From positions 50,918-114,917 of the forward strand of contig JAQWOT010000148.1 of NCBI GenBank assembly GCA_029245725.1: a stretch of DNA of 64,000 nucleotides. Direction: 5' to 3'. Of the stretch, positions 4,563 through 60,325 are shown piece after piece (positions within the stretch are counted from its first letter, which is position 1; every line of letters starts with the position of its first letter). The DNA is from SAR324 cluster bacterium (GTDB lineage: Bacteria > SAR324 > NAC60-12). A program made the translations under genes and the position numbers. The notes beneath the pieces are model-generated. The model ran no database searches. It was not told where the DNA came from and worked only from the letters and a program-made list of their open reading frames with translations.

Positions 4563-4592
4563 AACCCTCTGAAGTACTCTAAATCATCTAGT

Positions 4593-20383: not shown

Positions 20384-20462
20384 TCATGAATGATGATCTA
20401 GAAGCTTTGCACTAAAAAAGTATTTTCAATTCGAATACACAAACCCCACAACGAAATAGCTC

Positions 20463-21718: not shown

Positions 21719-21836
21719 AATAAATAGTTACAATCAAAACAACTGCTTTGTTGAAGAGATCTTTGTCGAATTTTAACAATACAGTGGTGCGGGATTATTA
21801 TTTTTCACTGCCTTTAATTCATTTTCCATATTCATC

Positions 21837-22190
21837 GTGAATATCACTTCTACTACTTATTTTCGCCTGTTAGTGGTGCTGCTAGTTTTCAATGCAAACT
21901 GCATTGCACCGCCCATCTCAAAAGGATCTTTCTCGGCATATCAGGATCTGACTGTGGCAGCTAGCAGCATGCATCACAATTCAGAGAGCGAACACGATTC
22001 TAGTCCTAACAGTCACTCAGCTCAGCAACACAATCATTCTGTATCTTGCGCAGATTGCCCACTGATTGAAGCCATTCAACCAGTCCAAATTATCTTCCAG
22101 AAGATTCTAATAATTTGGGGGATCAAGCCATCCCTAATTTCCATACCTTACGAAAACATCACACCTCCCCCTGAAAGACTCCGTTTCTAA
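21837..22190 (+). CDS. small secreted His-rich protein with a CADC motif (putative metal-binding, DUF2946-like?)
   Basis: 117 aa with a signal-like N-terminus, His-rich segment HHNSESEHDSSPNSHSAQQHNHS and CADC. Lies inside the copper island. Confidence 0.35.
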   Translation: MNITSTTYFRLLVVLLVFNANCIAPPISKGSFSAYQDLTVAASSMHHNSESEHDSSPNSHSAQQHNHSVSCADCPLIEAIQPVQIIFQKILIIWGIKPSLISIPYENITPPPERLRF

Positions 22191-22280
22191 TTGTGTGCGG
22201 CACTTGCCGTTAATCCTATTCTGAACACGGAGCTATCTATGTCGATTCTGGATTTTCGTGTGGGTCCACGAGGCCTGCGC

Positions 22281-23624: not shown

Positions 23625-23637
23625 TTCAGGAAATCAA

Positions 23638-25011
23638 ATGAACACACGAAGACAATTCTTGGGAGGCCTAGCTTTGACCGGTGGCCTCGCTGCATTGAGT
23701 CACAAGGCTTTGGCAAACATTCCTGAAATTCAGACACGCAATGAACCAACGACTGCCCAACCTGTGGTAGATGAAAGTTGTGAGGTAAATTACTTACCTG
23801 TAACTACCTTAAACGGTTGGACTCTGGAGCCACGATGCCGTGATGGATTTAAGGAGTACCACTTGGTCGCCGAACCAGTTTTGCGGGAATTGGCGCCAGG
23901 AACTGTGGCTCACCTATGGGGATATAATGGTTCTAGCCCTGGCCCTACAATCGAGGTGATCGAAGGGGACCGAGTTCGGATCTATGTGACTAATCGTCTA
24001 CCGGAACACACCAGTATTCATTGGCATGGTCAACGACTACCCAATGGAATGGATGGTGTGGTTGGTCTGAACCAAGAAGGTATTCCACCAGGAAAAACTT
24101 TTCTCTATGAGTTCGAAGCCAAACGACCTGGCACCTTCATGTACCACCCTCATGCCGATGAAATGACGCAGATGGCAATGGGTATGATGGGATTTTGGGT
24201 GACTCATCCTCGACAACCACATCCTTGGATTGAAGAGGTAGATCGAGATTATTGTTTCCTCCTCGGTGCATACGACATTGAACCAGGAGCTGCCGTGCCC
24301 AAGGTAAACACGATGCTCGAGTTCAATCTCTGGACCTGGAACAGTCGGATATTCCCCGGCCTTGATCCATTGGTGGCTGGACTGAACGAACGTGTCAGGA
24401 TTCGCATCGGCAATCTGACAATGACAAACCATCCAATCCATCTTCACGGACATGAATTTGAGGTGACCGGAACAGATGGAGGACCAACAAGACCCGAATC
24501 ACGCTGGCAAGAGGTGACCACTGACATTGCAGTCGGTCAGATGCGGCAGCTTGAATTCATTGCTTCTGAGGAAGGTGACTGGGCCTTTCATTGCCACAAG
24601 AGCCATCACACGATGAATGCCATGGGGCATGCTGTTCCTACACTCATTGGTGTGGACCATCGAGGTATAGCCGGCCGGATTGCCAGAATGGTTCCGGGCT
24701 ACATGGCCATGGGAGAACGTGGTATGGCGGATATGACAGAAATGGAGATGGCAATCCCTGAAAACACGGCGCCAATGATGACTGGAGAAGGTCCATTCGG
24801 CAGCGTCGAAATGGGAGGCATGTTCAATGTGGTCAAGGTTCGCAGTGACTTGCCCAAAGGAGTCTATAGCGACCCAGGTTGGTATGCTCAGGGACCGAGG
24901 GCAGATTTGGTATCTGTTAGTCCAAAGATTGAACGGTCAAGCCAAAGAAACCAATCCAGTGTTGTTAATGAGTATTTTGCAAGAAAACCAATGTTTAATT
25001 CGAAAGGATGA
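23638..25011 (+). CDS. multicopper oxidase (CopA-like), Tat-secreted
   Basis: Tat signal MNTRRQFLGG. Motifs HWHG, HPHADE, HLHGHEF and HCHKSHH. Confidence 0.9.
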   Translation: MNTRRQFLGGLALTGGLAALSHKALANIPEIQTRNEPTTAQPVVDESCEVNYLPVTTLNGWTLEPRCRDGFKEYHLVAEPVLRELAPGTVAHLWGYNGSSPGPTIEVIEGDRVRIYVTNRLPEHTSIHWHGQRLPNGMDGVVGLNQEGIPPGKTFLYEFEAKRPGTFMYHPHADEMTQMAMGMMGFWVTHPRQPHPWIEEVDRDYCFLLGAYDIEPGAAVPKVNTMLEFNLWTWNSRIFPGLDPLVAGLNERVRIRIGNLTMTNHPIHLHGHEFEVTGTDGGPTRPESRWQEVTTDIAVGQMRQLEFIASEEGDWAFHCHKSHHTMNAMGHAVPTLIGVDHRGIAGRIARMVPGYMAMGERGMADMTEMEMAIPENTAPMMTGEGPFGSVEMGGMFNVVKVRSDLPKGVYSDPGWYAQGPRADLVSVSPKIERSSQRNQSSVVNEYFARKPMFNSKG

Positions 25012-25538
25012 TCATGAAAAAAAGAAGTTTGCTTCTCGGGCTTAGTCTACTGACGGCTGTCTCCCCTGTTTCACTTATTGCCGGACCAGGGCATGGAAAT
25101 GAAGAGCATTCCGAAGGGTTTTTTACCCGACTCAAAAATGCAGTTTTTGAAAGTTATGGTGAACAACTTCCCTTCGGTAGGGTTGGAAAGAGCAGTGAAG
25201 TCAGTAAGAAAGTCGCAATTGAGTTGAACGATCAGTTTCGATTTTCCCCTGAGGTGATCCCGGTGGCTGTTGGAGAAACGCTTCAACTGGATTTTAAGAA
25301 TACTGGCCAAATACGACACGAATGGGTCATTGGAACTCCATTTGAAATTTCGGAACATCTAGAATTGATGCGCCGTTTCCCGGATATGGAGCATGATGAA
25401 CCGCACAATGTTCACGTCGATCCTGGCCAGTCACACACACTGGTCTGGCAGTTTAATCGTCAGGGTCGTTTTGAATATGCTTGCTTGCTGTCAGGCCATT
25501 ATGAAGCAGGCATGCGTGGATTTGCGGAGGTAAAATGA
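25008..25538 (+). CDS. cupredoxin-like blue copper protein
   Basis: Signal peptide. Type-1 Cu ligand spacing H...C(Y-A-C-L-L-S-G)H....M at the C-terminus. ATGA overlap with the upstream MCO gene. Confidence 0.65.
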   Translation: MIMKKRSLLLGLSLLTAVSPVSLIAGPGHGNEEHSEGFFTRLKNAVFESYGEQLPFGRVGKSSEVSKKVAIELNDQFRFSPEVIPVAVGETLQLDFKNTGQIRHEWVIGTPFEISEHLELMRRFPDMEHDEPHNVHVDPGQSHTLVWQFNRQGRFEYACLLSGHYEAGMRGFAEVK

Positions 25539-46699: not shown

Positions 46700-47689
46700 T
46701 TACATGCCCCAGCGTAGCCCTGCTGTGTGAACAGGTGCATCCCAGAGTCCCAGTAATTCGTCATCAACCAGATTCAGCGTGATCGAGCATCCGGCCATTT
46801 CCAAAGAAGTCACATAATTACCAACCAGTGAGCGGGCAATCGTTATTCCACTTCCAGCCAACTCCTTTTCAACACAGTGGTGCATTAGGTAAAGTTCCAT
46901 CAAAGGAGTTCCCCCAAATCCATTTACCAACAAGATGGCATTGCCCTTGGCCTGATCTCCAAAATCCTTGCGGATAGCTCCAATCATTTCTGCAGCAATA
47001 TCCTTGGCTTCAGCAAGTGCAACTCGTTTTCTTCCTGGTTCACCGTGAATCCCGACCCCCATCTCCATTTCATTTTCACCAATCTGGAAGGTCGGACTGC
47101 CGGCGGCTGGAACCGTACAGCTTGTTAGGGCGACCCCCATTGATCGCATCTGCTGATTGACACGATCCCCCAGAGTCTTCAAGGCTGCCAAGTCTCCACC
47201 TTGCTCTGCTGCAGCACCAACGATCTTCTCGACGATCATGGTTCCTGCGACACCCCGTCGGCCTGTTGAATAAGTTGAAGTCTCCACTGCCACATCGTCG
47301 TCAGTCAATACCGTGGTGACCTCACACTCTGCCATCTCGGCAGCCATCTCGAAGTTCATCACGTCACCTTCGTAGTTCTTGACGATCAGTAGCACCCCAC
47401 CACCACTTTCGGTAGCTTGCATTGCTTCCAGCATTTGATCTGGAGTCGGTGAGGTAAAGACCTGTCCAGGACAGGCAGCATCCAGCATTCCATGCCCAAC
47501 AAAACCACCATGCAGGGGTTCATGACCGCAACCTCCCCCAGAGATCAATACTGGCTTACCAGGCTTGAGTTGCTTGCGGCGTACAAATTTCCCCTCAGCC
47601 CCGAGTTCCAGCAAATCGGCATGTACGGAGACAAAACCACTTAAGCTTTCGGTAAGTACTTGATCGGGGTTATTAATTAATTTTTTCAT
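46700..47689 (-). CDS. dhaK: dihydroxyacetone kinase subunit DhaK
   Basis: Start at MKKLINNPDQ. ISGGGCGHEP loop containing the substrate His. About 330 aa. Confidence 0.85.
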   Translation of the reverse strand: MKKLINNPDQVLTESLSGFVSVHADLLELGAEGKFVRRKQLKPGKPVLISGGGCGHEPLHGGFVGHGMLDAACPGQVFTSPTPDQMLEAMQATESGGGVLLIVKNYEGDVMNFEMAAEMAECEVTTVLTDDDVAVETSTYSTGRRGVAGTMIVEKIVGAAAEQGGDLAALKTLGDRVNQQMRSMGVALTSCTVPAAGSPTFQIGENEMEMGVGIHGEPGRKRVALAEAKDIAAEMIGAIRKDFGDQAKGNAILLVNGFGGTPLMELYLMHHCVEKELAGSGITIARSLVGNYVTSLEMAGCSITLNLVDDELLGLWDAPVHTAGLRWGM

Positions 47690-47737
47690 GGTCTCTCCCA
47701 CTGAAGAAATGAGGATGGGGAACAGATCAGCACGCTT

Positions 47738-48178
47738 TCAGGAGCGCTCAGAAATCTGTAGCAGGTGACTTAACCGACGAGCAGTTTCCAGGATCAGGTC
47801 ATCGAGTTCTTTGTTGGCTTCATCGCTTCCCAGATCTGGCAAGTACAACATCATCCGACGAAAGCGCAGCCCCTCTTGATGCGCCTCATGGTGCTGGTAA
47901 TGTGGACCGTGACGTCTACCAGGGTGTGCCTGGTCGTAGTAGTACAAGAAGTCTCGACGAGCTTTTTCAGAGAAATGGCAAACCTCAAAGATGATATCCA
48001 GATGACGAGCCGGGATGGGTGTGGCGTAGCTGGGATTGGAAATCTGGGAGATAAAACTACGATTCTTGCGCAGCATTGTCGCCAGTCGCTGTCGGGTTCC
48101 AGAAGGGCGATTGCTCAGCATCTCTGCGAGGATCTGCTTATACTGGGCAACCAACTTGGCTTTTAAATCCGTTGTCAT
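47738..48178 (-). CDS. hypothetical protein with an N-terminal HTH (XRE-like)
   Basis: Start at MTTDLKAK, ATGA overlap with the enzyme I stop. TRQRLATMLRKNRSFISQISN resembles an HTH. Lies between ptsI-like and dhaK. Confidence 0.4.
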   Translation of the reverse strand: MTTDLKAKLVAQYKQILAEMLSNRPSGTRQRLATMLRKNRSFISQISNPSYATPIPARHLDIIFEVCHFSEKARRDFLYYYDQAHPGRRHGPHYQHHEAHQEGLRFRRMMLYLPDLGSDEANKELDDLILETARRLSHLLQISERS

Positions 48179-49776
48179 ACCCCCTCCAGATTGGTTTCCC
48201 GAATGGTCCACTTGGTCTTCCCCAAGCGAGCTGGTGCCACTGACAAATTACGCAAGCCTGCTTCCAGTAACTGTGCGATGAAATTCGGATCGCTACCCAT
48301 ATCTCCGCAAAGGCTCAGCTCTTGGCCGGAACAATCGCAATGCTCCACCAATTCTCTAATAACTCGCAAGACTGCTGGATGGCCAGGATCTGCCAGATAT
48401 GCAACATGATGAAGGTCACGGGAACTTGCTGTCAAATATTGAACCAGATCATTACTACCAATCGAAAAAAATGCTGCATCAGTAAACAACTCAGGAGCCA
48501 AGGCTGCGGCGGGGACTTCTACCATCATTCCGAGAACTGGCTTGTGGAATTCGATACCTTCTGTCGTGAGTTCTGCACAAACATCTTCCAACAATTCTCT
48601 GGTTGAATGTAGTTCGTCAGGAACAGTGACCATCGGCACCATTACCTTCAGATTTCCATGAACAGCAGCCCTGCATAGTGCACGGAGTTGAGTGCGGAAG
48701 ACCTCTGGTTGTCGTAGAGAAAGTCGGAGTCCTCGTAAACCAAGAAACGGGTTACTTTCAGCTGGTTGCGCCAGCCCGGGCAGAGGCTTGTCACCACCCG
48801 CATCAAGAGTGCGAATCGTTACTGGCTTTTCTCCAGCCCATTCCAAGAGTTTTCGATAGGATCGGTACTGTGATTCTTCGCTGGGTAGCCCATGATGAAA
48901 CAGAAACTCTGAACGCATCAGGCCGATTCCATCACAATGCGCTGAATTGAGTTTTGCCAATTCTTCTGGCAGCGCCACATTGATCAGCACCTGAACTGCT
49001 GTTCCGTTCACAGTTTTTGCGGGTTGATCCAATACAGTGGCTAGTCGTTCTGCTTCCTCTTTAGCTATTTGAAGCTTATGCTCAAAGGCTTGAGTTTCCT
49101 CTGCGGAAGGATCTACGTGCAGCACACCTTCATACGCATCCAGCAACAATCTGGTTTGATCTGGGAAAGCTCCAAGTGGTAGGTCTTCGATTCCAACTAG
49201 CATCGGCACCCCACGGGAACGTGCTAGCATGGCTACATGACTCGAAGGGCTACCTTCCCGCAAGACCACTCCTCCACCTTTATTCCAATCTAGGCCCAGA
49301 AATCGACTGGGAGTTAAATCCGTTGCGAGCAGGATCGCTCCCTCAGGAATCCCGGCTTCTGTTTCTCCACGTAGGATCCTGAGGACTCGGTCACGAATAT
49401 CGCGTAGGTCACTGGCTCGTGCCTGAAAGTACTCGTCTTCGCTTTGCTCGTAGTCCGTTACATGTTCGTCCAACGTTTGTTGCCAGGCTTCGATCAATGT
49501 CGTACCTGCTGTAAAAGCCTGACATACTGGATCACTGAGTGCTTCATCTTCGAGCATCACAAGCTGGAACTCGAGAATTTCTACCTCTTCTCCCTCGACT
49601 CGCTCCATCAACTCCACCAACTGGCTACTGGCTAACGCCAGGGCTTCTGATAGATCAATCGTGGGTTTCAAGGAGTCAGCAGAACGTCCTACGGCAGACG
49701 CCTCCACCCAGAATGCGGCACCCTGAGCAAGACCAGGAGCTGCACTGATTCCTCTAAGCTGAGGCTGACTGGGCAT
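48175..49776 (-). CDS. ptsI: phosphoenolpyruvate-protein phosphotransferase (PTS enzyme I)
   Basis: Start at MPSQPQL. Phospho-His region GSPSSHVAMLARSRGVPMLVG and a C-terminal PEP-utilising TIM-barrel domain. About 533 aa. Confidence 0.85.
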   Translation of the reverse strand: MPSQPQLRGISAAPGLAQGAAFWVEASAVGRSADSLKPTIDLSEALALASSQLVELMERVEGEEVEILEFQLVMLEDEALSDPVCQAFTAGTTLIEAWQQTLDEHVTDYEQSEDEYFQARASDLRDIRDRVLRILRGETEAGIPEGAILLATDLTPSRFLGLDWNKGGGVVLREGSPSSHVAMLARSRGVPMLVGIEDLPLGAFPDQTRLLLDAYEGVLHVDPSAEETQAFEHKLQIAKEEAERLATVLDQPAKTVNGTAVQVLINVALPEELAKLNSAHCDGIGLMRSEFLFHHGLPSEESQYRSYRKLLEWAGEKPVTIRTLDAGGDKPLPGLAQPAESNPFLGLRGLRLSLRQPEVFRTQLRALCRAAVHGNLKVMVPMVTVPDELHSTRELLEDVCAELTTEGIEFHKPVLGMMVEVPAAALAPELFTDAAFFSIGSNDLVQYLTASSRDLHHVAYLADPGHPAVLRVIRELVEHCDCSGQELSLCGDMGSDPNFIAQLLEAGLRNLSVAPARLGKTKWTIRETNLEGV

Positions 49777-50071
49777 CCTGAGATTCCTCAAAATCCTGAT
49801 TGACCAAATCAATCAAAGCCTCCACTGCAGGCTGAGCATCTGTTCCAGTGGCTCTCAATTGCAGAATGGTTCCCTGCGGCATCTTGGCTCCCATCACCTT
49901 GACAATACTTTTGGCATCGATCCACGGCCCCTCAGAGTCAGCAGCGATTTCAATCTGTGCCGAGAAGCGCTTGGCGAGCTTGGTCAACTTGACAGAGGGC
50001 CGAGCATGTAGACCTACATCATGAGTAATTTCTACCGCACCCTCAGAAGTCCAGGTATTTTCTTCAGTCAT
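49754..50071 (-). CDS. HPr-like phosphocarrier protein
   Basis: GLHARPS phospho-His motif. 105 aa. 23-nt overlap with the enzyme I start. Confidence 0.7.
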   Translation of the reverse strand: MTEENTWTSEGAVEITHDVGLHARPSVKLTKLAKRFSAQIEIAADSEGPWIDAKSIVKVMGAKMPQGTILQLRATGTDAQPAVEALIDLVNQDFEESQDAQSASA

Positions 50072-50077
50072 GCCCCC

Positions 50078-50458
50078 TCACATTTCTTCTGCTGAGCTTT
50101 TGACTTCTTCCAGGCTTGCACCGCCAGATGCTTCCGAAGCTGCTATGACACTCCCTTCGACAATCGGCGCATTGCAGATCACTACCTTCTTTTGTCTTTC
50201 GGCAGGTAGCATTTCAATCGCCATTTCGCTATTCGTTTCAGCACCACCAAGATCAACCATTACGGCTACTCCAGAATCTGACCATGCTTTAGAGATGGCT
50301 TCCATGATTGCTTCCACACTTGTCCCCAAACCACCGTCAGGGTTGCCACCACACCAGGCAAGAGGAACTTCATCTCCCACCATCTGTAGCACCATTTCAG
50401 CCGTACCCGCAGCGACCCACTGAGAATGCGAAACGATCACAATGCCCACGTTACTCAT
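50078..50458 (-). CDS. dhaM: DhaM phosphotransferase subunit, EIIA(Man)-like domain
   Basis: IVIVSHS phospho-His motif typical of the DhaM N-domain. 126 aa. Separated from the HPr ORF by 6 nt. Confidence 0.7.
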   Translation of the reverse strand: MSNVGIVIVSHSQWVAAGTAEMVLQMVGDEVPLAWCGGNPDGGLGTSVEAIMEAISKAWSDSGVAVMVDLGGAETNSEMAIEMLPAERQKKVVICNAPIVEGSVIAASEASGGASLEEVKSSAEEM

Positions 50459-51081
50459 GATTTCTCTTCCAGAAGTTGACAGATAGTTTGAATTATCAAT
50501 GTAGAGGAACAGGCCCCAGGGTCCATGTGTCCAATCGAGCGATCACCCAGGAAAGAAGCCCGTCCACGAGTTGCTTTCATTGGAATTGTGGCTTCTGCGG
50601 CTTGCTGGGCAATGGCAGAGATCTCTGCCATTGATTTATTTGCTTCCAAGGCTTGCTGAACTGGAGCCAACACATCTAACATGGTCTTGGCTCCAAGATC
50701 TGCTTTTCCTCGTTTCTTCAAAGCTTCGATGGATGCCACAAGCATCTGACTCAATTTCGCAGAATCCAACTCATCGTCAGTGGGCCATTCCTTACCCAGC
50801 GTCATCGCTAGAGTGCCGTAGAGTGGACCAGAGGCCCCCCCAACTTTCATCACCATGGTCATTCCCACTGCTTTAAGGGTCTCAGCTGGTGGTTTGGCTG
50901 TGATATTGTCCAAATCAGCGAGCACGTTCTCCAGGCCTCTCTTCATATTGATGCCATGATCGCCATCACCAATAGCTTGATCCAAAACCGTGAGGTGTTC
51001 AGCCTGGGCAATCACTGCTTCTGCAGTTCCTTGAAGTAACGATCTAAGTAAGTCTGGAGTCATCTGTAGCTTCTCCATCAA
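50455..51081 (-). CDS. dhaL: dihydroxyacetone kinase ADP-binding subunit DhaL
   Basis: IGDGDHGINMKRG motif. 208 aa. Confidence 0.85.
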   Translation of the reverse strand: MMEKLQMTPDLLRSLLQGTAEAVIAQAEHLTVLDQAIGDGDHGINMKRGLENVLADLDNITAKPPAETLKAVGMTMVMKVGGASGPLYGTLAMTLGKEWPTDDELDSAKLSQMLVASIEALKKRGKADLGAKTMLDVLAPVQQALEANKSMAEISAIAQQAAEATIPMKATRGRASFLGDRSIGHMDPGACSSTLIIQTICQLLEEKS

Positions 51082-51093
51082 GTTGCCTTGCCT

Positions 51094-52119
51094 TCAGGCA
51101 GACAAACGATTTCCAGATTGGTCAAAGAAAAGAGGTTGCACCAATTCAAGGGCTACCCCGTCACCTTCCTTCAGCAAAGTTGCTGGATCTGCCAGCAAGG
51201 TGAGATCTTGTCCTGCACAGAGCAGATGCAGGTAAGTCTGGTCGCCAAGATATTCAACACGTTGCACTTGGGCTGGTACAGTGGCCTTGGTCTGCTTATC
51301 TACAGAATGCAACTGAACATGGTCTGTCCGCAATCCAAGCTGTGTGGTGTTGGCAGGAGCATGTACGGGCCATTCACTGCTCAATGGAACGAGATTGATC
51401 GAGGGTTGACCCAATCGCTCAGCCACATAGGTGTTGTTTGGCTGTTCAAAAATTTCCTTGGGCGTGCCCAGTTGTACCAGTTCCCCCTCTCGGAGCACTC
51501 CAATGCGATCAGCCAGAGTCATTGCTTCCACCTGGTCGTGGGTCACATAAAGGATCGTTGCCCCAAGATTCTGTTGAATGTGCTTCAGCTCCACTCGCAG
51601 TTCAGTTCGCAGCTTCGCATCCAGGGAAGAGAGCGGTTCATCCATCAGATAGATGGTTGGCTTTCGTACCAGTGCCCGTCCTATCGCGACGCGTTGCATC
51701 TCTCCACCGGACAAGGCCGTTGCTTTATTTTCAAGCTTGTGGTTAATCTGCACCATCTTCGCTATTTCCTCAACCCGACTGGCAACAGCGTCTTCAGAAA
51801 GGCCGGATACTGGCGAGCGAAGCGGGAAGCTCAAATTGTCTCGAACCGTCAAGTGTGGGTACAAAGAGTATTGCTGGAAAACAAACGCAACATCTCTTTC
51901 AGCAGGTTGAGACTTCGTCATGTCCAGACCATTGATCCGAATACTCCCAGAATCTGCCTCCTCCAATCCAGCAATCAAACGGAGAGTGGTTGTTTTGCCA
52001 GCTCCCGAAGGGCCCAACAAAACAACCAGTTCTCCATCTCCAATGGTCAACTCGAAGTTGTTGATTGCAAGCGTGTCCCCGAAGCGCTTCTGTATTCCCT
52101 GGAGAGCTATCTCAGCCAT
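51094..52119 (-). CDS. ABC transporter ATP-binding protein (MalK-type; second ATPase of the system)
   Basis: Start at MAEIALQG. GPSGAGKTT, LSGGEMQR. Confidence 0.85.
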   Translation of the reverse strand: MAEIALQGIQKRFGDTLAINNFELTIGDGELVVLLGPSGAGKTTTLRLIAGLEEADSGSIRINGLDMTKSQPAERDVAFVFQQYSLYPHLTVRDNLSFPLRSPVSGLSEDAVASRVEEIAKMVQINHKLENKATALSGGEMQRVAIGRALVRKPTIYLMDEPLSSLDAKLRTELRVELKHIQQNLGATILYVTHDQVEAMTLADRIGVLREGELVQLGTPKEIFEQPNNTYVAERLGQPSINLVPLSSEWPVHAPANTTQLGLRTDHVQLHSVDKQTKATVPAQVQRVEYLGDQTYLHLLCAGQDLTLLADPATLLKEGDGVALELVQPLFFDQSGNRLSA

Positions 52120-53206
52120 GAGCAACCTCCATGGACAGTGCTTTTCCATCACTCTTATCAAATAGAGAGGCCCTCTGAGCAGCAAAATTCAATCGCACTG
52201 ATTGCCCTTCTCCAAATGAATGAGTGCTACGAACGCGAGAAAGTGCTTGTCCATAAGGAGTCTGGATCATCAGGATCTGGGTAGTTCCCATGTATTCCAC
52301 GGCACTGATTTCTCCCGGCAGGGGGCCTTTCTGCTCTGGAAGTATGTGTTCCGGGCGAACACCCAAGACAAGATTGCCAGCTTGAACACCCTGTATTGAC
52401 GCAGGACAACGAAGTGTTCCACAGCTGTTACCTGGCAAAGTGATCTCCGTTTGTCCAGGCTCCAGAGCATTGGGCAACGTGAGCAAATTCATCGGTGGTG
52501 ATCCGATAAAACCAGCAACATACATGGTTGATGGTGTATTGTAGATCTCGCTTGGTGTCCCCAACTGCTCAATCACACCATGATTCATCACCGCAATCCG
52601 GTCAGCCATGGCCATCGCCTCCAGTTGGTCATGCGTGACGTAAGCCGTCGTTGCCTCAATTCGGTCATGCAATCCCTTCAGTTCCTGGCACATCAAATTA
52701 CGAAATTCAGCATCAAGAGCACCAAGAGGTTCATCCATCAGGAAGGCTTTAGGGCGACGAATGATAGCTCTTCCGAGAGCTACGCGTTGACGATCACCAC
52801 CAGATAGCCCTGAGACAGAACGATTCAGCAGATGATCGATTCTCAGTAGACGAGCCGCTTCTTCAACTCGCAGCTTGATTTCTGAAGAAGGAGTCCCAAT
52901 GCACTTTAATGGGAAAGCCAGATTCTTCCGCACATTCATGTGGGGATAGAGCGCAAACAACTGGAAGACAAAAGCAATGTCTCTTTGAGACGCTGGCAGG
53001 AAGGTGACTTCTTCCTGATCAAGCCGAATCTCACCAGAAGTGGGCAACTCCAGTCCAGCAATCATCCGCAACGTCGTTGTTTTCCCACACCCAGAGGGCC
53101 CCAACATCACGAAGAATTCACCGTTTTGAATCGTGAAGCTGGAGTCTTGGACCGCAACGAAATCCCCGAAGGATTTTTTCAGGCGACTGACTTGAATCTC
53201 GGCCAT
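52112..53206 (-). CDS. ABC transporter ATP-binding protein (MalK-type; first ATPase of the system)
   Basis: GPSGCGKTT, LSGGDRQR, TOBE-like C-terminus. Confidence 0.9.
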   Translation of the reverse strand: MAEIQVSRLKKSFGDFVAVQDSSFTIQNGEFFVMLGPSGCGKTTTLRMIAGLELPTSGEIRLDQEEVTFLPASQRDIAFVFQLFALYPHMNVRKNLAFPLKCIGTPSSEIKLRVEEAARLLRIDHLLNRSVSGLSGGDRQRVALGRAIIRRPKAFLMDEPLGALDAEFRNLMCQELKGLHDRIEATTAYVTHDQLEAMAMADRIAVMNHGVIEQLGTPSEIYNTPSTMYVAGFIGSPPMNLLTLPNALEPGQTEITLPGNSCGTLRCPASIQGVQAGNLVLGVRPEHILPEQKGPLPGEISAVEYMGTTQILMIQTPYGQALSRVRSTHSFGEGQSVRLNFAAQRASLFDKSDGKALSMEVAHG

Positions 53207-53209
53207 TTG

Positions 53210-53404
53210 CTATTCCGGGAAGTGGCTCACGATAATGAACAAAACGGTGCCTGTGAGGATCACCACGAAGGAGTAGGTGTAAAGCACTAGCAAAAAGGGC
53301 TGCATCAACATCACCACCCCAAGCAGGATGATCACTGTAGCAATCCACTCCCAAAAATTTCTTCGAAAGTAGCGCTGAAGGCTCGATGTTGTGTTCTCTG
53401 ACAT
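53210..53404 (-). CDS. small integral membrane protein, DUF2160-like (GlpU-like)
   Basis: 64 aa, two TM helices, between the ATPase and permease genes. Placement and size match the DUF2160 component of rhizobial glycerol ABC transporters (glpSTPQUV). Recalled, not verified. Confidence 0.5.
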   Translation of the reverse strand: MSENTTSSLQRYFRRNFWEWIATVIILLGVVMLMQPFLLVLYTYSFVVILTGTVLFIIVSHFPE

Positions 53405-53415
53405 CAGGCTCCTCT

Positions 53416-54354
53416 TTATTTGCGGACGGCGCCGAAAGTGATTCCACGTAGCAGATGCTTGCGGAGCATGATCGTGAAGAACACGATGGGTACCAGAAAG
53501 AGTGTTGCGCCAGCTGCTACTGCAGGCCAGTCTAGCCCTCCTTCCCCAATGATAGTTGGAATAAAAGGTGGTGCCGTCTGAGCGGTGCCTGAAGTTAGTA
53601 AGAGGGCAAAGGCATATTCATTCCAACTGAAGATCAAACAGAAGATCGCAGTTGCGGCTATACCTGTAGTTGCCTGGGGCAAGACCACTTTACGGAAAGA
53701 CTGGAAACGAGAGTAGCCATCGATCATCGCAGCTTCCTCATATTCCCGTGGAATCTCATCAATAAAGCCCTTCAGAAGCCAGACTGCCAAGGAGATGTTG
53801 ACAGCCGTATAGAGCAGGATCATTCCTAGGTGCGTGTCTGCCAAACCCAACTTGCGATACATCAGGAAGATGGGAATCGCCACAGCGATTGGCGGCATCA
53901 TCCGGGTAGAGAGGATGAAAAACATCAGGTCATCTTTGAGCGGGATCTTAAAGCGTGAGAATGCATAGGCCGCCAGGGTTCCCAAGAAGACCGAAAGAAA
54001 CGTAGAACCGAAGCCAATGATGATAGAATTGAGGAATCGCTGACCAAATTTGGAAGGGCCTGCGATCACCATGCTTCGTGAACGAACCAACTCATCGTAC
54101 CAGGTTTCTGGAGGCGGCAATGTTTCCATGTACTCTGGAGTTTGCCGAGTTCGGGTAGTGAAGACGTTTACATAGCCTTCCATGGTTGGGGAGAACACCA
54201 TCTTTGGAGGATAGCTGATCGAATCCGGGGGAGACTTGAAGCCAGTTAGGAAGATCCAAATCAGTGGGATGATGCTGACCAATGCATACACAATGACTAA
54301 TCCAGCAGCTAATCGCTTGCCCCAGAGCTTTTCGTGTGGAGGTGTGGAACTCAT
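53416..54354 (-). CDS. ABC permease (UgpE/MalG-like)
   Basis: Start at MSSTPPHEK (ATGA overlap with the upstream permease). EAA loop YEEAAMIDGYSRFQSFRKVVLP. Confidence 0.85.
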   Translation of the reverse strand: MSSTPPHEKLWGKRLAAGLVIVYALVSIIPLIWIFLTGFKSPPDSISYPPKMVFSPTMEGYVNVFTTRTRQTPEYMETLPPPETWYDELVRSRSMVIAGPSKFGQRFLNSIIIGFGSTFLSVFLGTLAAYAFSRFKIPLKDDLMFFILSTRMMPPIAVAIPIFLMYRKLGLADTHLGMILLYTAVNISLAVWLLKGFIDEIPREYEEAAMIDGYSRFQSFRKVVLPQATTGIAATAIFCLIFSWNEYAFALLLTSGTAQTAPPFIPTIIGEGGLDWPAVAAGATLFLVPIVFFTIMLRKHLLRGITFGAVRK

Positions 54355-55313
54355 CGTTGCTTCACTGCATTGAGAGCTTTGACGTAGATGTTCGCCACGC
54401 CAAAGACCGTCACAAAAAGGATAATGGCAAAAGCTGAAGAGTAGCCAGTCCGCCACTTCTCAAAGGCCTCTCGCTTCAAGTTGATTGAAGCCAGTTCGGT
54501 CACTGATCCTGGACCACCGTTGGTCAATTCCACCACGAGGTCAAACATCTTGAAGTTCTCAATTGCTCGAAACAACACGGCCAACATCAAGAAAGGTAGA
54601 ACCATCGGGACTGTAATCGACCAGAATTGACGCCACTTTGAGGCCCGATCGACTTCTGCTGCCTCATAGATATAATCAGGAATCGAACGCAGCCCAGCCA
54701 AGCAAATCAGCATGATGTATGGTGTCCACATCCAGGTATCAACGATCACAATAGACCAGGGTGCCAAATTGACATCCCCCAGCATCTGAAAAGACGAAGG
54801 ATCTGCACCTGTGAAGAAAGCAATGATGTAATTGAAAAGCCCAATCTGGGGTTGATAGAGAAAGCGCCAGAAATTTCCCACTACTGCCGGCGAAAGCATC
54901 ATCGGCAGCAAGATCAGCGTGGTCCAGAAAGAGTGTCCTTTGAATTGCTTGTTCAGTAGCCAAGCTAGGCCAAAGCCAAGTAGTACCTGCAGCAGCATCG
55001 TCCAAATCAGAAAATGTGCGGTCGTCTGCAAGGTGATCCAGATATCTGCATCACCCAGCACACGCTCGTAGTTCCTGAGCCCAATGAACTTTTCACCGCG
55101 GGCAGCACGGTTAGCTTTGTAATTGGTAAAGGACAGTTGGATGGTCCAGATCAACGGGAAAATGTTGATCGCCAACAACAGTAGAATGGTTGGAGTCACA
55201 AAGAGCCAGGCAATGGCTCGATCTGATAGTCCTCTTACCTGTCTGACAACGGGCGCAGGTGTAGCAACAGCTGCAGAGGTGACAATTTTTTGGAGTATAG
55301 AAGGACGAGACAT
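54351..55313 (-). CDS. ABC permease (UgpA/MalF-like)
   Basis: Start at MSRPS (ATG). EAA loop YEAAEVDRASKWRQFWSITVP. Confidence 0.85.
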   Translation of the reverse strand: MSRPSILQKIVTSAAVATPAPVVRQVRGLSDRAIAWLFVTPTILLLLAINIFPLIWTIQLSFTNYKANRAARGEKFIGLRNYERVLGDADIWITLQTTAHFLIWTMLLQVLLGFGLAWLLNKQFKGHSFWTTLILLPMMLSPAVVGNFWRFLYQPQIGLFNYIIAFFTGADPSSFQMLGDVNLAPWSIVIVDTWMWTPYIMLICLAGLRSIPDYIYEAAEVDRASKWRQFWSITVPMVLPFLMLAVLFRAIENFKMFDLVVELTNGGPGSVTELASINLKREAFEKWRTGYSSAFAIILFVTVFGVANIYVKALNAVKQR

Positions 55314-55384
55314 CGGGCTCCTTTTAAACACAACTGGTCACAGGAATTCACTGTTATTTACAGTTGAATTCCTGTGAATTCATC

Positions 55385-56725
55385 CTAGAGCTTGCCTTCG
55401 TCTTCAAAGGTCTCTGTCCAGTCTTCAATCAGCTTGTCGAGTGCTTCCTGAGCGGTTCCTTGATCAGCCACCACAAAGTCATGCACACGCTTCTGCATCG
55501 CCAACAGCAGCTCTGCGTAAGCAGGCTCCTGCCAGAAATCCTGAACTCCGTCCATCGCCTTCAGGAAGTCTGCAGCAAACGGCTGGGTGTTGGCAAAGCC
55601 CGGATCCAAAAGAACAGACTTATGGCAGGAGTATCCACCCAATGACCACCACTTCTTCTGAACTTCAGGAGAAGCGAACCACTTGATGTACTCCAAGGCC
55701 TGATCTTTGTTCTCGGAGTAGGAAACCACAGAGATTCCCTGCCCACCCAATGTAGAAGCTTCCACTTTTTGACCTGGATTCACGAAGAAACCGATCTTGT
55801 CACCGCCAACCACAGGATCTTTGTGGAGCCCGGGGAAGAAGGCGAACCAGTTCATCATCATGGCAACTTGCCCGGACTTGAAAGCATCTAGTCCTTCTTC
55901 CATGTAGCTATCGGTGTAGCCTGGAGGAGTACAGCACTTGTAGAGATCCTTGTAGAATTCCAACGCTGCTACAGCGTCTGGTGAATTAACAAAGCCTTCC
56001 ATGTCATAAGGCTTGTTTGGATTCTGGTACTGGAAACCCCAGGAGTAGAGAGCACCAGTCGCACCCATGGTGATTCCCTCAGATCCACGTTCGGTGAAAA
56101 TCGCAGCGCCATAGACACGCTTCCCATCGATATCTCGCCCCTGGAAGAACTCACCAATGTCTTTCATCTCTGTCCAGGTCTTTGGCGGCTCCAGATCACG
56201 TCCGTACTTAGACTTGAATTCTGAACGTAGTGCTGGCCGTGAGAACCAGTCCTCTCGGTAGACCCAGCCATTGGCATCACCCATCGCTGGCAGAGCCCAG
56301 TAGTTGGGGCTTCCTTTTGGCCAGGTGGAGTAGGCGTAAACGGTTGCCGGCAGGAAGTCATCCATTGAAATGCCTTCCTTATCAAAGAAGCTGTTTAGCT
56401 TAACATAGTGTCCGTTCTCAGCAGAACCACCAATCCACTGACTGTCTCCAATAAGTAGGTCACAGAGTTTACCGCCGGAGTTCAGTTCGTTTAGCATTCG
56501 GTCAGCATAATTGGGCCAGGGCACGAACTCAAAATTCATTTCGATTCCGCTCTGGGCTGTGAAGTCCTTGGACATCTCAACCAAAGCGTTTGCAGGGTCC
56601 CACGCTGCCCAGCAAAGAGTGAGGCTTTGGGCTTGAGCCTTCTGGCTTGGCGCTGCCATGACCGTCAGCGCCAGTGTAGCGCCAGCTGCGGTCTGCAGCA
56701 TTGACTTGATCCATCCCTTTTTCAT
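55385..56725 (-). CDS. ABC transporter solute-binding protein (carbohydrate/polyol, GlpV-like)
   Basis: Signal peptide, 446 aa. First gene of a seven-gene minus-strand transporter cluster. Confidence 0.8.
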   Translation of the reverse strand: MKKGWIKSMLQTAAGATLALTVMAAPSQKAQAQSLTLCWAAWDPANALVEMSKDFTAQSGIEMNFEFVPWPNYADRMLNELNSGGKLCDLLIGDSQWIGGSAENGHYVKLNSFFDKEGISMDDFLPATVYAYSTWPKGSPNYWALPAMGDANGWVYREDWFSRPALRSEFKSKYGRDLEPPKTWTEMKDIGEFFQGRDIDGKRVYGAAIFTERGSEGITMGATGALYSWGFQYQNPNKPYDMEGFVNSPDAVAALEFYKDLYKCCTPPGYTDSYMEEGLDAFKSGQVAMMMNWFAFFPGLHKDPVVGGDKIGFFVNPGQKVEASTLGGQGISVVSYSENKDQALEYIKWFASPEVQKKWWSLGGYSCHKSVLLDPGFANTQPFAADFLKAMDGVQDFWQEPAYAELLLAMQKRVHDFVVADQGTAQEALDKLIEDWTETFEDEGKL

Positions 56726-56940
56726 GATTCCTCTCTTGTTAAGGAGATCCCATCACCCGATCTGAAATGATTCAGGGTGAACAGTTGTCGCTTGTTCCAG
56801 GCTCCGGAATCGACTCCGGTCTGTTGCGCAAGGCGCTAAATTAGTAAACTTAAAACTAAACAAAAGAAAGAAAAAAATACGCCGAACACAAATTTCGCAC
56901 TTGCACAATCAGATATAATGAGGATTGGAAAGGAATAATG

Positions 56941-58119
56941 TCAGCTGTTTAATGAAGTCCACACTCCACCATTTTTGTGGGAACGCAACACGGCATCAAC
57001 AAAACGCATCCCTTGTAGACCTTCTTCCAGATCGGGGAAAATTACCTCGTTCAGCTGATTTTTTCCGTTGCGCTTGGCTTCAATTGCATCAGCCACTTCA
57101 CGATAGATGGTAGCAAATCCTTCGAGGTAGCCCTCTGGATGCCCTGGTGGAATTCTGGTGACCCTTGCAGCAGCACCTGTAAGGCCAGGACCGCCTCGTC
57201 CAAGCAAGCGAGAAGGCTCCCCAAGAGGGGAGAACGTTAAATAATTCGGGTTTTCCTGAGACCAACTCAGGCCAGCTTTGTCTCCATAAATCCGCAGACG
57301 TAGCCCATTTTCATTACCAGGGGCCACTTGACTAGCCCAAAGCATACCTTTGGCGCCCCCTTCAAAGCGCAGCAACACGTGGACGTTATCATCAAGTTGC
57401 CTTCCTTCAACAAAAGAATTCAGGTCTGCCAACACACTCGCCGGTGTTAGTCCCGAGACGAAACAGGCTAGATGGAAGGCATGGGTTCCAATATCTCCAA
57501 GACATCCACCTCCTCCGGCCTGATTTGGATCTGTTCGCCAGGAAGCTTGCTTTTGCCCGGTGTCTTCCAACTTTTCGCTCAACCAATCCTGGGGATATTC
57601 CGCTTGAACCACCCGAATCTTTCCAAGCTCTCCACTAGCGATGATTTCACGAGCATGTCGAATCAACGGATAACCGCTGTAGTTGTAAGTTACAGCAAAA
57701 AGACAACCCTTCTCCTTGACCAGTTCAGATAGTCCCTCCGTATCCGCAAGGTGAGCAGCCAACGGTTTATCACAAATCACATAGATTCCAGCTTCCAGAA
57801 AGGCCTTGGCAATCGGGACATGCAGATGGTTTGGAGTAACAATCACGACTGCCTCAATTCCATCAGGACGAGCCGCTTCCTGCTGAGCCATTTCGTGGTA
57901 GCTTCCGTAACAACGATCCGCAGCAATTCCAATCGCTTGACCGGAACGCTTTGAACGCTCGGCTTCTGAACTCAAAGCTCCTGCAACCAGCTCAAAACGG
58001 TCATCAATGCGAGCTGCAATGCGATGCACTGCTCCAATAAAGGCACCTTCACCACCACCCACCATTCCATAGGGAATGCGGCGGAAGTTCGAATTGGTTT
58101 CATATGCTTCAATCGTCAT
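56941..58119 (-). CDS. Gfo/Idh/MocA family oxidoreductase
   Basis: Rossmann N-domain (GMVGGGEGAFIGAVH) and a typical C-domain. 392 aa. Confidence 0.8.
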   Translation of the reverse strand: MTIEAYETNSNFRRIPYGMVGGGEGAFIGAVHRIAARIDDRFELVAGALSSEAERSKRSGQAIGIAADRCYGSYHEMAQQEAARPDGIEAVVIVTPNHLHVPIAKAFLEAGIYVICDKPLAAHLADTEGLSELVKEKGCLFAVTYNYSGYPLIRHAREIIASGELGKIRVVQAEYPQDWLSEKLEDTGQKQASWRTDPNQAGGGGCLGDIGTHAFHLACFVSGLTPASVLADLNSFVEGRQLDDNVHVLLRFEGGAKGMLWASQVAPGNENGLRLRIYGDKAGLSWSQENPNYLTFSPLGEPSRLLGRGGPGLTGAAARVTRIPPGHPEGYLEGFATIYREVADAIEAKRNGKNQLNEVIFPDLEEGLQGMRFVDAVLRSHKNGGVWTSLNS

Positions 58120-58163: not shown

Positions 58164-59060
58164 TCAGTGGTAGGTTGTCGGAGCCAACAGGCAGTTTGAT
58201 TCTTCGAGCGAGGATTCAAGCTGGATGGTTGCATGCTCAATCTCAAATTGATCATGCAGATGCTGCTGGATCTGGTGGAGCAAGGAGTTATCCAGTGATT
58301 GCTGATGTACCACCAAATGAACGGTCAGTGCGACCTCACTGGTACTCAACGGCCAAACATGAAGATCATGCAGACGGTCTACCTGATCCAAGTTAGCCAG
58401 ATACTGTCGAATGCCCTGTACATCAATGTTTCGAGGTACTGCATCCAATGCGTAATTCAGGGAATCTTTGAGTAAACCCCAACTGCTGAAAATGATGAAA
58501 CTAGCCACCAGCAGACAAGGGGCTGGATCAACCCAGGGCAATTCCTGCCAAAGCATTAGCAGGCCACCAAGCATTACCGCCAGTGAGATCCCTGCATCAG
58601 CCACCATGTGCAGAGATGCAGCCCGCAAATTGCGGTCATGGTGTTGACCACTCACGAACAGGAGGGCCGTCACTGTATTGACCAGCACTCCAACTCCAGC
58701 TACCACAATGATGGTCAAGCTTGTCACCGATTGTGGTGCAAAGAGTCGCTGAAAGGCTTCCCAGCCAAGGGCATCTGTGGCAACCAGAAGCATCAACGAA
58801 CTCAACAAGGAGGCCATCACAGGGACCTTACGCCACCCGTAAGTTCGATTTGCTGTGGCAGGAGCTTTTGCCAGATAACTTGCTCCCCAGGCAAGCAGTA
58901 GTCCTGCAACATCACTCAGGTTATGACCAGCATCTGCCAGTAAAACGAGCGAATCTGAGAGTAACCCGAAAAAGAATTCCACGAACACGAATCCCAAGTT
59001 CAGGGTTACCCCAAGCGCAAAAGCTCAGTTGTAATTACCAACATGGTGATCGTGTGCCAT
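58164..59060 (-). pseudogene. cation diffusion facilitator (ZitB/CzcD-like) Zn/divalent-metal efflux gene with an in-frame TGA near the N-terminus
   Basis: The ATG at 59060 gives MAHDHHVGNYN, then an in-frame TGA at 59025-59027, then AFALGVTLNLGFVFVEFFFGLLSDSLVLLADAGHNLSD... This mirrors the ZitB N-terminus MAHSHSH...AFGVTAGFMLVEVVGG. The ORF track reinitiates at a TTG at 58997. Confidence 0.6.
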
Positions 59061-59086: not shown

Positions 59087-60142
59087 TCAGGTCAATCCCA
59101 GCATCCGCTGATTCGCTGCTTCATCAGTTCCACCATCTGCGAAGTCATCAAATGCCTTTTCAGTGACCTCGATGATATGACGTTGAATGAAGGGGGCACC
59201 TTCTGCAGCACCATGTTCGGGATGCTTCAGACAGCATTCCCACTCCAGCACTGCCCAGCCTGGAAAGTCGTACTGGGCCATCTTGGAGAAGATCCCTGGG
59301 AAATCAACCTGTCCATCCCCGAGAGAACGGAAACGGCCTGCACGGTTGACCCAGGACTGATAACCGCCATAAACTCCTTGTCGACCAGTCGGGTTGAATT
59401 CTGCATCCTTGACATGGAAAATCTTGATCATGTCGTGATAGATGTCGATGTGCTCCAAATAGTCTAAGGCTTGCAGGACATAGTGACTGGGATCATAAAG
59501 CATTCGACAGCGTGGGTGATTGCCAGTTCGCTCTAGCAGCATTTCAAAGGTCACTCCGTCATGGAGATCTTCACCTGGATGAATTTCGTAGCAAACATCA
59601 ACTCCGGCATTCTCAAATACATTTAGGATGGGGGTCCAACGCTTGGCCAACTCGTCAAAGGCTGTCTCGACAAGCCCAGAAGGTCGCTGTGGCCAGGGAT
59701 ACATGTAGGGCCACGCCAATGCTCCTGAGAAGGTAGCATGCGCAGTCAGTCCAAGGTGTTGGGAAGCCTGAGCTGCCATAAACAACTGATTGACGGCCCA
59801 CTCTTGTCTCGCTTGTGGGTTACCACGAACTTCAGGGGCTGCAAACCCGTCGAATGCGTCATCATAAGCTGGATGAACGGCCACGAGTTGGCCTTGTAAG
59901 TGCGTGGAGAGTTCAGTGATTTTCAGTCCATAAGAAGCCGCAACACCTGCGACTTCATCACAGTAGGTCTTGGAAGCTGCTGCTTTTTCCAGATCGAAGA
60001 GACGCTTGTCCCAACTCGGCACCTGAACTCCTTTGTAGCCGAGACCGGAAACCCACTGACAGATACTGTCAAAGCTGTTGAATGGTGCCTGATCACCCGC
60101 AAATTGGGCTAGGAAAATAGCGGGACCTTTGATGGTTTTCAT
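59087..60142 (-). CDS. sugar phosphate isomerase/epimerase (xylose isomerase-like TIM barrel)
   Basis: Start at MKTIKGP. AP-endonuclease-2/xylose-isomerase-like TIM-barrel features (E..HPGED, FHVKD, LEWEC). Confidence 0.7.
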   Translation of the reverse strand: MKTIKGPAIFLAQFAGDQAPFNSFDSICQWVSGLGYKGVQVPSWDKRLFDLEKAAASKTYCDEVAGVAASYGLKITELSTHLQGQLVAVHPAYDDAFDGFAAPEVRGNPQARQEWAVNQLFMAAQASQHLGLTAHATFSGALAWPYMYPWPQRPSGLVETAFDELAKRWTPILNVFENAGVDVCYEIHPGEDLHDGVTFEMLLERTGNHPRCRMLYDPSHYVLQALDYLEHIDIYHDMIKIFHVKDAEFNPTGRQGVYGGYQSWVNRAGRFRSLGDGQVDFPGIFSKMAQYDFPGWAVLEWECCLKHPEHGAAEGAPFIQRHIIEVTEKAFDDFADGGTDEAANQRMLGLT

Positions 60143-60325
60143 GAGAAACCCCACAGTTGGCGTGATGCAATTTCTTCCCGAAGGATTAAGTCCCCGGGAT
60201 AGGTTGAGAGGAGAAGCTCACAAGGGAGCAAACGGCCGAATCGTAGCGCTCTGGACGAAGGAAGGCAACGCCCAAATCAGAGCAAACGCTACGATTTGCA
60301 ATTTTTCCTCAGAAAGAGTTAAAAA

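Follow-up and report, generated by a model that had tools for sequence, protein, structure and literature searches.

An ABC importer with two distinct ATPases coupled to dihydroxyacetone kinase genes in a SAR324-like marine genome: a candidate dihydroxyacetone uptake system

Introduction

Dihydroxyacetone (DHA) kinases of the DhaKLM type, known from Escherichia coli and Lactococcus lactis, draw on the phosphotransferase system (PTS) along a chain that runs from phosphoenolpyruvate (PEP) through enzyme I (EI), HPr, DhaM and DhaL-ADP to DHA, and the regulators of known Dha systems include the AAA+ activator DhaR and DhaS/DhaQ. Entry of DHA into the cell is usually ascribed to glycerol facilitators and, to our knowledge, no dedicated bacterial DHA uptake system has been characterised. 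Here we analysed a stretch of 64,000 nucleotides (nt) from contig JAQWOT010000148.1 of a SAR324 cluster bacterium, hereafter the window, in which the genes of an ATP-binding cassette (ABC) importer are directly followed by those of a PTS-dependent DHA kinase (positions 46700-56725 of the window, minus strand).

Importers of the CUT1 family, such as MalEFGK2 and UgpBAEC2, combine a binding protein of the SBP_bac_1/8 families, two BPD_transp_1 permeases and a homodimer of a MalK/UgpC-type ATPase with a TOBE tail. A larger inventory has been described for the glycerol system of rhizobia and Cupriavidus, which comprises a binding protein, two permeases, a small membrane protein and two ATPases (PMC7912956). 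The annotated glycerol operon of plasmid pRL9 of Rhizobium johnstonii 3841 contains, in this order, glpR, glpD, two ATPase genes, two permease genes, the genes of a 93-amino acid (aa) DUF2160 protein and of a 574-aa binding protein, and glpK. In Ruegeria pomeroyi the GlpV-type system glpVSTPQ (SPO0608-0612), which has been experimentally verified on glycerol, also lies beside glpK and glpD (PMC10130141). The six kinds of subunit found in these GlpSTPQUV systems (R. leguminosarum/johnstonii pRL9, R. pomeroyi, and Rmet_2229-2234 of C. metallidurans) are the same six kinds that are encoded in the window.

Results

Organisation of the transporter-kinase operon

According to the list of open reading frames (ORFs) and their translations, 12 ORFs with near-zero intergenic space occupy positions 46700-56725 of the minus strand, to which the coordinates of this and the next sections also refer. 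Their order is binding protein, first permease (perm1), second permease (perm2), 64-aa protein, ATPase 1, ATPase 2, DhaL, DhaM, HPr, EI, a small helix-turn-helix (HTH) protein and DhaK. This tight packing is consistent with a single operon, and the junctions perm1/perm2, ATPase 1/ATPase 2, DhaL/DhaM and EI/HTH gene overlap by 4-8 nt, a usual sign of translational coupling. Family calls were made by Pfam and NCBIfam profile searches, with the curated cut-offs that are given below for the individual genes.

The periplasmic binding protein (446 aa, 55385-56725) harbours the Pfam domains SBP_bac_1 and SBP_bac_8 and a Sec signal peptide (...AQA/QS), and is 74-86% identical to its orthologs in Alpha-, Beta- and Gammaproteobacteria. 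It is followed by two BPD_transp_1 permeases, the MalF/UgpA-like perm1 (54351-55331), with MalF and UgpA as best NCBIfam models, both below their cut-offs, and 72-87% identity across related loci, and the 312-aa MalG/GlpQ-like perm2 (53416-54354), whose start overlaps the perm1 stop (ATGA) and whose 312-aa gene call was also made on a TARA contig. After the gene for the 64-aa protein (53210-53404), which is preceded by a strong ribosome-binding site, AAAGAGGAG, come the two ATPase genes. ATPase 1 (364 aa, 52112-53206) is of the MalK/UgpC type, with ABC_tran, OB_MalK and TOBE_2 domains and a UgpC subfamily score of 388 bits (cut-off 432), and its translation shows an intact Walker A (GPSGCGKT), signature (LSGGD), Walker B (LMDEP) and H-loop (THD). 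ATPase 2 (about 341 aa, 51094-52119; ABC_tran, TOBE_2) is of the MalK type and equally intact (GPSGAGKT, LSGGE, LMDEP, THD). It is 40% identical to ATPase 1, whose end it overlaps by 8 nt, an overlap that recurs in the related loci L006 and L008. Pfam and NCBIfam recovered all the features of CUT1 membership, namely a binding protein of family 1, one MalF-like and one MalG-like permease, and a MalK/UgpC-like ATPase that ends in a regulatory/TOBE domain, and these domain families are shared with MalEFGK2 and UgpBAEC2. The window transporter differs from both in having two different ATPase genes instead of one encoding a homodimer, and in adding a conserved 64-aa membrane subunit.

The kinase genes that follow scored as DHA kinase subunits throughout. 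DhaL, the ADP-binding subunit (50455-51081; Dak2), reached 232 bits with the equivalog TIGR02365 (cut-off 138), DhaM (126 aa, 50078-50458; EIIA-man), a single-domain EIIA-Man-type phosphoryl donor, 141 bits with TIGR02364 (cut-off 98), and the DHA-binding subunit DhaK (46700-47701; Dak1, E=6e-123), which probably starts at M5 (47689), 464 bits with TIGR02363 (cut-off 406). The HPr-family phosphocarrier (49754-50071; PTS-HPr, TIGR01003 63.8 bits, cut-off 47.9) and the full-length EI, devoid of a GAF domain (48175-49812, probable start near 49776; PEP-utilisers_N, PEP-utilizers and PEP-utilizers_C, TIGR01417 383 bits, cut-off 342), were also above their thresholds. The translations retain the segments SSHVAMLAR in EI, GLHARP in HPr and IVSHS at the N-terminus of DhaM, which we take to be the phospho-histidine motifs. 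The chain from PEP to DHA known from DhaKLM is therefore also encoded here, with a single-domain DhaM as in Gram-positive bacteria. Unlike the E. coli and L. lactis systems, however, the window operon brings its own full-length EI and HPr, joins the kinase genes to an ABC importer, and encodes as probable regulator a small XRE-like protein (47738-48178; ATGA overlap with the EI stop) which is neither DhaR nor DhaS/DhaQ.

A preliminary description of this DNA, made from the sequence alone, had listed dhaL, dhaM (EIIA), HPr, a full-length EI, an HTH protein and dhaK next to the transporter, and all of them were found in place, with fitting families except for the HTH protein, which belongs to none (see below). 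It had also remarked that no glycerol dehydrogenase or glycerol kinase was present. In agreement with this, tblastn probes for GlpK, GlpD, iron-containing alcohol dehydrogenase, GlpR, LacI and FGGY kinases found no homolog in the 64-kb window, and Pfam scans of the window ORFs tested likewise returned no glycerol kinase, GlpD, iron-containing alcohol dehydrogenase, GlpR or LacI. Opposite the ATPase 2 gene lies a 398-aa ORF in antisense direction (51088-52284, plus strand); long antisense ORFs of this sort are frequent in the high-GC relatives, and it was treated as non-coding.

The transporter is coupled to a Dak kinase across genomes

All the window proteins were mapped onto a comparison set of 80 genome loci (numbers preceded by L). 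In every one of these loci for which enough downstream sequence was recovered, a Dak kinase directly followed the six transporter genes. Approximately half of the loci showed the PTS form, with the order of the window (DhaL-DhaM-HPr-EI-small protein-DhaK). The remaining ones, including those from Roseibium, Rhodobacter, Tabrizicola, Variovorax and Ruegeria conchae, encoded a single two-domain kinase, which scored best with the model of ATP-dependent glycerone kinase, though under its cut-off (502 against 575 bits). In these genomes an ATP-type Dak stands in for the entire PTS module, a further difference from DhaKLM, and the kinase module has been swapped non-orthologously around an invariant transporter. 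Two loci, L033 and L093 (18633-24674, Rhizobium sp. T136 pT136c), carried both forms in series, the two-domain ATP-type Dak being followed by DhaL-DhaM-HPr-EI-small HTH protein-DhaK. The physical linkage of the transporter to a PTS-dependent DHA kinase that has a dedicated EI and HPr, as advanced in the preliminary description, is thus borne out by synteny and equivalog scores, and extends to an evolutionary coupling.

The 12-gene order of the window was also present in Pelagibius, Stappia and Bradyrhizobium diazoefficiens, where the genes concerned (blr3566-blr3577) were induced and repressed as a block and no substrate was assigned (PMC5017801). The gene cluster is therefore widespread and had been noticed before, although we found no functional assignment for it. 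An island on a plasmid of Agrobacterium vitis, inserted between type IV secretion genes, consisted of LacI, transporter and kinase and no other metabolic gene. When the flanking ORFs of the related loci were clustered all-against-all, after discarding the long antisense ORFs of high-GC loci, no recurrent glycerol dehydrogenase, aldolase, GlpK or GlpD emerged, and the only recurrent families were LacI, a hydratase, a Gfo/Idh/MocA oxidoreductase (Gfo), a XylB-like kinase and an SDR dehydrogenase.

The closest relatives of the cluster were found in marine metagenome-assembled genomes and on TARA contigs, with binding proteins 98-99% identical to that of the window; one of these genomes was labelled Deltaproteobacteria, and one homolog of the small HTH protein was named SAR324 cluster bacterium. 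All the other carriers were Alpha-, Beta- or Gammaproteobacteria with an identical gene order, which suggests that the cassette, with its own EI and HPr, was likely acquired horizontally. It is self-contained and portable, and is found here in a SAR324-like marine genome.

Relationship to the glycerol transporter GlpSTPQUV

The preliminary description had matched the transporter to rhizobial GlpSTPQUV, and its account of that architecture and of the subunit inventory was correct, but sequence, gene order and linkage place the window system outside that family. The window binding protein (446 aa) is 24% identical to GlpV (574 aa) over 442 aa (BLASTP), whereas plasmid-borne GlpV orthologs are 59-100% identical to each other or to R. 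johnstonii GlpV. Nevertheless, in a BLASTP panel of six CUT1 binding proteins only GlpV was detectably similar to it (99 bits), and perm2 scored 129 bits with GlpQ as compared to 62-75 bits with three other permeases of the MalG type. The two ATPases, on the other hand, scored 247-267 bits against ordinary MalK-type proteins and 159-194 bits against GlpS/GlpT, of which they are not orthologs. The gene order also differs, with the binding protein first and the ATPases last in the window and the ATPases first in Glp operons. Moreover, Glp systems are linked to glpR, glpD and glpK, whereas the window transporter family is linked to Dak kinases: glpK, glpD and glpR were absent from the 80 related loci, in which only XylB-like FGGY kinases with 24-30% identity were detected. 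On these grounds, and for want of a DUF2160 protein (see below), membership of GlpSTPQUV was rejected. We read the window transporter as a distinct family, probably a distant sister of Glp in its binding protein and one permease; this distant but specific kinship with GlpV and GlpQ would fit a three-carbon solute. Both a GlpU/DUF2160 system and a Dak-linked system coexist in Rhizobium sp. WYJ-E13, which argues that the two are not redundant.

Among solved structures the best relative of the window binding protein was the trehalose/maltose-binding protein 1eu8 (E=7e-20), and GlpV of R. johnstonii (L009, 19989-21713) had no relative at E<=0.001. The preliminary description had named two findings that would speak against its own reading, a small protein without DUF2160 and a binding protein grouping with non-polyol binders. 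No DUF2160 match was indeed obtained (see below), while the binding protein gave a mixed picture, since GlpV is its sole detectable CUT1 relative in the panel and yet its solved relatives are sugar binders.

The 64-aa membrane protein

The 64-aa protein was conserved in 74 loci, always between perm2 and ATPase 1, with a mean column identity of 65% and the core motif RRGPWE..AT.LIALGV.MLMQPF.L.LYTYSF...L.GTVMF.IVSHFPE, and an identical protein was called on marine metagenome contigs. This conservation identifies the ORF as a real gene. We read its layout as a basic N-terminus, two predicted hydrophobic helices and an invariant C-terminal motif, and the constant place of its gene, flanked by those of perm2 and ATPase 1, suggests a putative accessory membrane subunit.

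It had initially been taken for a DUF2160 protein (PF09928), the family of GlpU, an identification that has to be abandoned. The 64-aa protein belongs to no Pfam or NCBIfam family and had no Pfam match even at E<=10, and DUF2160 was likewise absent among the families listed (25 of the 36 found) in a Pfam scan of 39 orthologs at the same threshold. A BLASTP comparison with GlpU revealed no similarity (E=3.4), and hhalign of the 64-aa family against the DUF2160 alignment gave a probability of 1.4%. As a positive control, every GlpU homolog retrieved carried PF09928. We therefore read the 64-aa protein and GlpU as either unrelated or diverged beyond recognition at the sequence level. Of the two features that the preliminary description had singled out as atypical, the pair of distinct ATPases holds against the CUT1 homodimer, and the small subunit is of an unnamed family instead of DUF2160.

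A putative regulator and its candidate operator

The small HTH protein (146 aa; 146/157 aa) gave nothing significant against Pfam, NCBIfam or PDB sequences, Pfam HTH_19 reaching E=0.13. We retrieved 1177 homologs, all annotated as hypothetical and none with a Pfam domain, whose alignment revealed the invariant segment RPSGTRQRL...L.KNRSF.SQI.NP. An AlphaFold2 model built from the alignment (pLDDT 86.7) was submitted to Foldseek, which retrieved the N-terminal domain of lambda cI, the restriction-modification controller C.Esp1396I, phage 186 CI, ClgR and SinR, with probabilities mostly of 0.8-0.99 and target TM-scores mostly of 0.55-0.68, but weak E-values (0.3-2). At the fold level the model thus points to a putative lambda-repressor-like protein, and to that extent it lends support to the earlier label of HTH protein.

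Within the comparison set, members of this family were confined to PTS-type loci, where their genes were invariably flanked by those of EI and DhaK. A survey of the 300 nt preceding the binding-protein gene covered 37 PTS-type and 31 ATP-type loci. The heptamer GTTTAGT or its complement ACTAAAC was present in 37 of the 37 PTS-type and in none of the 31 ATP-type loci, a count made on the same set of loci, sharing ancestry, on which the element had been discovered and hence no independent test. Its density was 6.9 per kb upstream as compared to 0.105 per kb locus-wide, and the usual PTS-type arrangement was TTGCnnnGTTTAGT-N11-12-ACTAAAC, frequently with a third copy. ATP-type loci, which always contain a LacI gene, showed instead a LacI-like palindrome (TGAnnTRCGYAnnTCA) in 22 out of 31 cases, as opposed to none of the 37 PTS-type loci, with perfect 16-bp examples such as TGAGGTACGTACCTCA or TGACATACGTATGTCA, often in two copies (L008, L032, L034, L038, L046 and others). 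In the window, the candidate operator upstream of the binding-protein gene (56835-56861, minus strand) consists of GTTTAGT, N9, ACTAA and TTTAGC, and contains the sole GTTTAGT of the 64 kb (56855-56861), about 136 nt upstream of the binding-protein ATG. From the restriction of the 146-aa gene to PTS-type loci together with the distribution of the heptamer, we infer that the XRE-like protein is probably the regulator of the operon, and that GTTTAGT is its candidate operator, which would overlap the promoter.

Predicted solute and alternative explanations

We consider it highly likely that transporter, kinase and PTS proteins form one functional import-and-phosphorylate unit. In the mechanism that we propose, the periplasmic binding protein would capture a small neutral solute, most likely DHA, which would cross a MalF/MalG-type permease pair carrying the 64-aa two-helix protein as an extra subunit, with transport powered by a heterodimer of the two different MalK-type ATPases. 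In the cytoplasm the solute would be bound by DhaK and phosphorylated by DhaL-ADP/ATP to dihydroxyacetone phosphate (DHAP), DhaL being recharged by DhaM, which would be fed by the operon's own HPr and EI and ultimately by PEP, while the 146-aa protein would probably regulate the operon from the GTTTAGT-type operator in the binding-protein promoter region. Since the module travels alone and its product would go straight into glycolysis, an importer of the kinase's own substrate is the simplest reading, which favours DHA over glycerol. We put the probability that DHA is the solute at about one half, the value that we also give to the explanation as a whole. The original proposal, import of glycerol or DHA and phosphorylation of DHA with PEP via EI and HPr, is therefore retained for the PTS route, for which the genes are present, and for DHA, while glycerol has become less likely.

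The genes adjoining the operon have to be considered at this point. Upstream of the binding-protein gene lie, also on the minus strand, a Gfo gene (56941-58119; Pfam; PDB 3v5n, E=4e-155) and a gene for a xylose-isomerase-like TIM barrel (59087-60154), with a cation-diffusion-facilitator gene (58164-58997) between them. The TIM barrel matched PDB 8RO4, the 2-hydroxy-3-keto-glucal hydratase of Agrobacterium tumefaciens (AtHYD), over its full length (E=8e-187), and is 76% identical to the ortholog in Agrobacterium sp. T29 (BLASTP); the Gfo is 57-60% identical to those adjoining the hydratase in Phaeobacter and Agrobacterium T29, and 57-67% identical to the hydratase-adjacent reductases of glycoside loci as a whole. 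AtHYD together with the Gfo reductase turns the elimination product of 3-keto-glucosides into glucose (PMC10628242). Of the four activities of the non-hydrolytic glucoside pathway of A. tumefaciens, 3-dehydrogenase (GlycDH), eliminase (AtOGE), hydratase (AtHYD) and reductase (Gfo), the window has orthologs of the last two; homology searches of the window returned no eliminase, and for the 3-dehydrogenase only weak matches to Gfo paralogs, 22-24% identical to the Phaeobacter candidate. In Phaeobacter and Agrobacterium T29 the pair lies beside a one-ATPase sugar transporter, a second TIM barrel and a second Gfo, whereas in the window it lies beside the Dak-linked transporter. Of the 80 loci, 31 had the pair next to the Dak-linked transporter. 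Three arrangements occurred and both types of kinase were represented; the pair sometimes lay within the same operon, as in Roseibium denhamense, and in L058, L064 and L072 it came directly after the kinase. Such a recurrence indicates a link beyond chance.

Several observations weigh against the import of DHA by this system, and the main one is precisely that the hydratase/Gfo pair would have no role in it. In 11 loci (L006, at 2474-4791, L013-L015, L018, L021, L025, L028, L029, L060 and L070) a XylB-type xylulokinase (TIGR01312, 408 bits, cut-off 380) accompanied a LacI-hydratase-Gfo unit, and seven of these also contained an SDR dehydrogenase, neighbours which may be a sign of a connected polyol route. 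Trehalose/maltose, disaccharides or oligosaccharides are the ligands of the nearest solved binding proteins, and Dak-family kinases can use other small ketoses and aldoses. A literature search, within the searches possible, found no substrate assignment for the Dak-linked transporter. As to regulation, the Foldseek E-values of the regulator model were weak, the heptamer was counted on its own discovery set, and a promoter/terminator consensus scan gave counts at or below the shuffled expectation, with no enrichment.

Three other solutes or routes were weighed against DHA. The operon might encode a glycerol importer, in which case either the adjacent Gfo or a dehydrogenase from another part of the genome would oxidise glycerol to DHA ahead of the DhaKLM step. 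Such a route, from glycerol via DHA to DHAP, is classical, the subunit inventory equals that of the glycerol system, the binding protein and perm2 have their distant specific relatives in GlpV and GlpQ, and an oxidoreductase does adjoin the operon in the window. This Gfo was, however, rejected as a glycerol dehydrogenase on account of its orthology with the hydratase-adjacent reductase of glycoside loci, and about 60% of the Dak-linked loci lack it; no glycerol dehydrogenase homolog was found in the window nor as a recurrent flank family, and the A. vitis island is devoid of any oxidoreductase. Verified glycerol ABC transporters are, moreover, of the GlpV type and paired with glpK and glpD, and one genome contains both a GlpU/DUF2160 and a Dak-linked system, so that we regard glycerol as a very doubtful solute. 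Another small ketose or polyol (L- or D-erythrulose, erythritol/threitol, xylitol or glyceraldehyde), imported and then phosphorylated as ketose or aldose by the Dak kinase, is unlikely. In its favour, erythrulose kinases (LerK and DerK of Mycobacterium smegmatis) belong to the Dak family, the two-domain kinase remained under the glycerone-kinase equivalog cut-off, and SDR and xylulokinase genes stand beside 7-11 loci. Against it, DhaK, DhaL and DhaM of the window exceed the DHA-kinase equivalog cut-offs, enzymes that would process C4 or C5 phosphates further (such as isomerases or aldolases) were not recurrent in the flanks, and the product of the minimal A. vitis island would need further enzymes.

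The neighbouring genes bring in a different possibility, namely that the operon is part of a non-hydrolytic 3-keto-glycoside pathway and imports a 3-keto-sugar, a keto-glucal or a glycoside, the sugar being processed by hydratase and Gfo and the keto-product or aglycone by the Dak kinase. The orthology of both window proteins to enzymes acting in glucose release from keto-glucal, their repeated placement beside the transporter and after the kinase, and the glycosides bound by the nearest solved binding proteins would all agree with it. More than half of the loci, as well as the mobile A. vitis island, nevertheless lack the pair, no eliminase or glycoside 3-dehydrogenase homolog was found in the window, the LacI proteins of Dak-linked loci and those that adjoin the hydratase in complete glycoside loci fall into separate ortholog groups, and we know of no 3-keto-glycoside product that is a Dak substrate. 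We hence consider this explanation rather improbable. A bolder version, to which we give little credence, would have the Dak kinase act on a new substrate other than free DHA, with transporter, kinase, hydratase and Gfo making up an undescribed pathway for scavenging keto-sugars or keto-glycosides, a pathway that would count the 64-aa subunit and the XRE-like regulator among its novel components.

Implications of a DHA importer

The locus combines parts of known kinds, a CUT1 ABC importer and a DHA kinase, and the importer joined to Dak is a concrete candidate for the first dedicated DHA importer. Its carriers include rhizobia, roseobacters, Roseibium, Burkholderiales and the SAR324-like marine genome studied here; if DHA is indeed the solute, this would suggest that DHA is exchanged between organisms as a metabolite in seawater and the rhizosphere. 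The locus also defines two unnamed protein families, the 64-aa ABC subunit and the 146-aa XRE-like regulator, together with a predicted operator. As regards annotation, Dak-linked transporters should not be named glycerol (Glp) transporters, nor their small subunit DUF2160.

Other features of the window

On the minus strand between 27546 and 42145 the window contains two more CUT1 sugar-type ABC loci, with ordinary single ATPases, interleaved with genes for two Gfo/Idh/MocA oxidoreductases, a PhyH-family dioxygenase, an esterase-like protein and a 2-hydroxyacid dehydrogenase. A 903-aa protein with pentapeptide repeats in its middle part is encoded at 9999-12710 (minus strand), and the large ORFs neighbouring it (7014-8651 and 8786-10021) had no Pfam match. 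Finally, positions 18884-25538 harbour a copper-handling cluster, comprising two multicopper oxidases and CopD-like, outer-membrane efflux and cupredoxin-like proteins.

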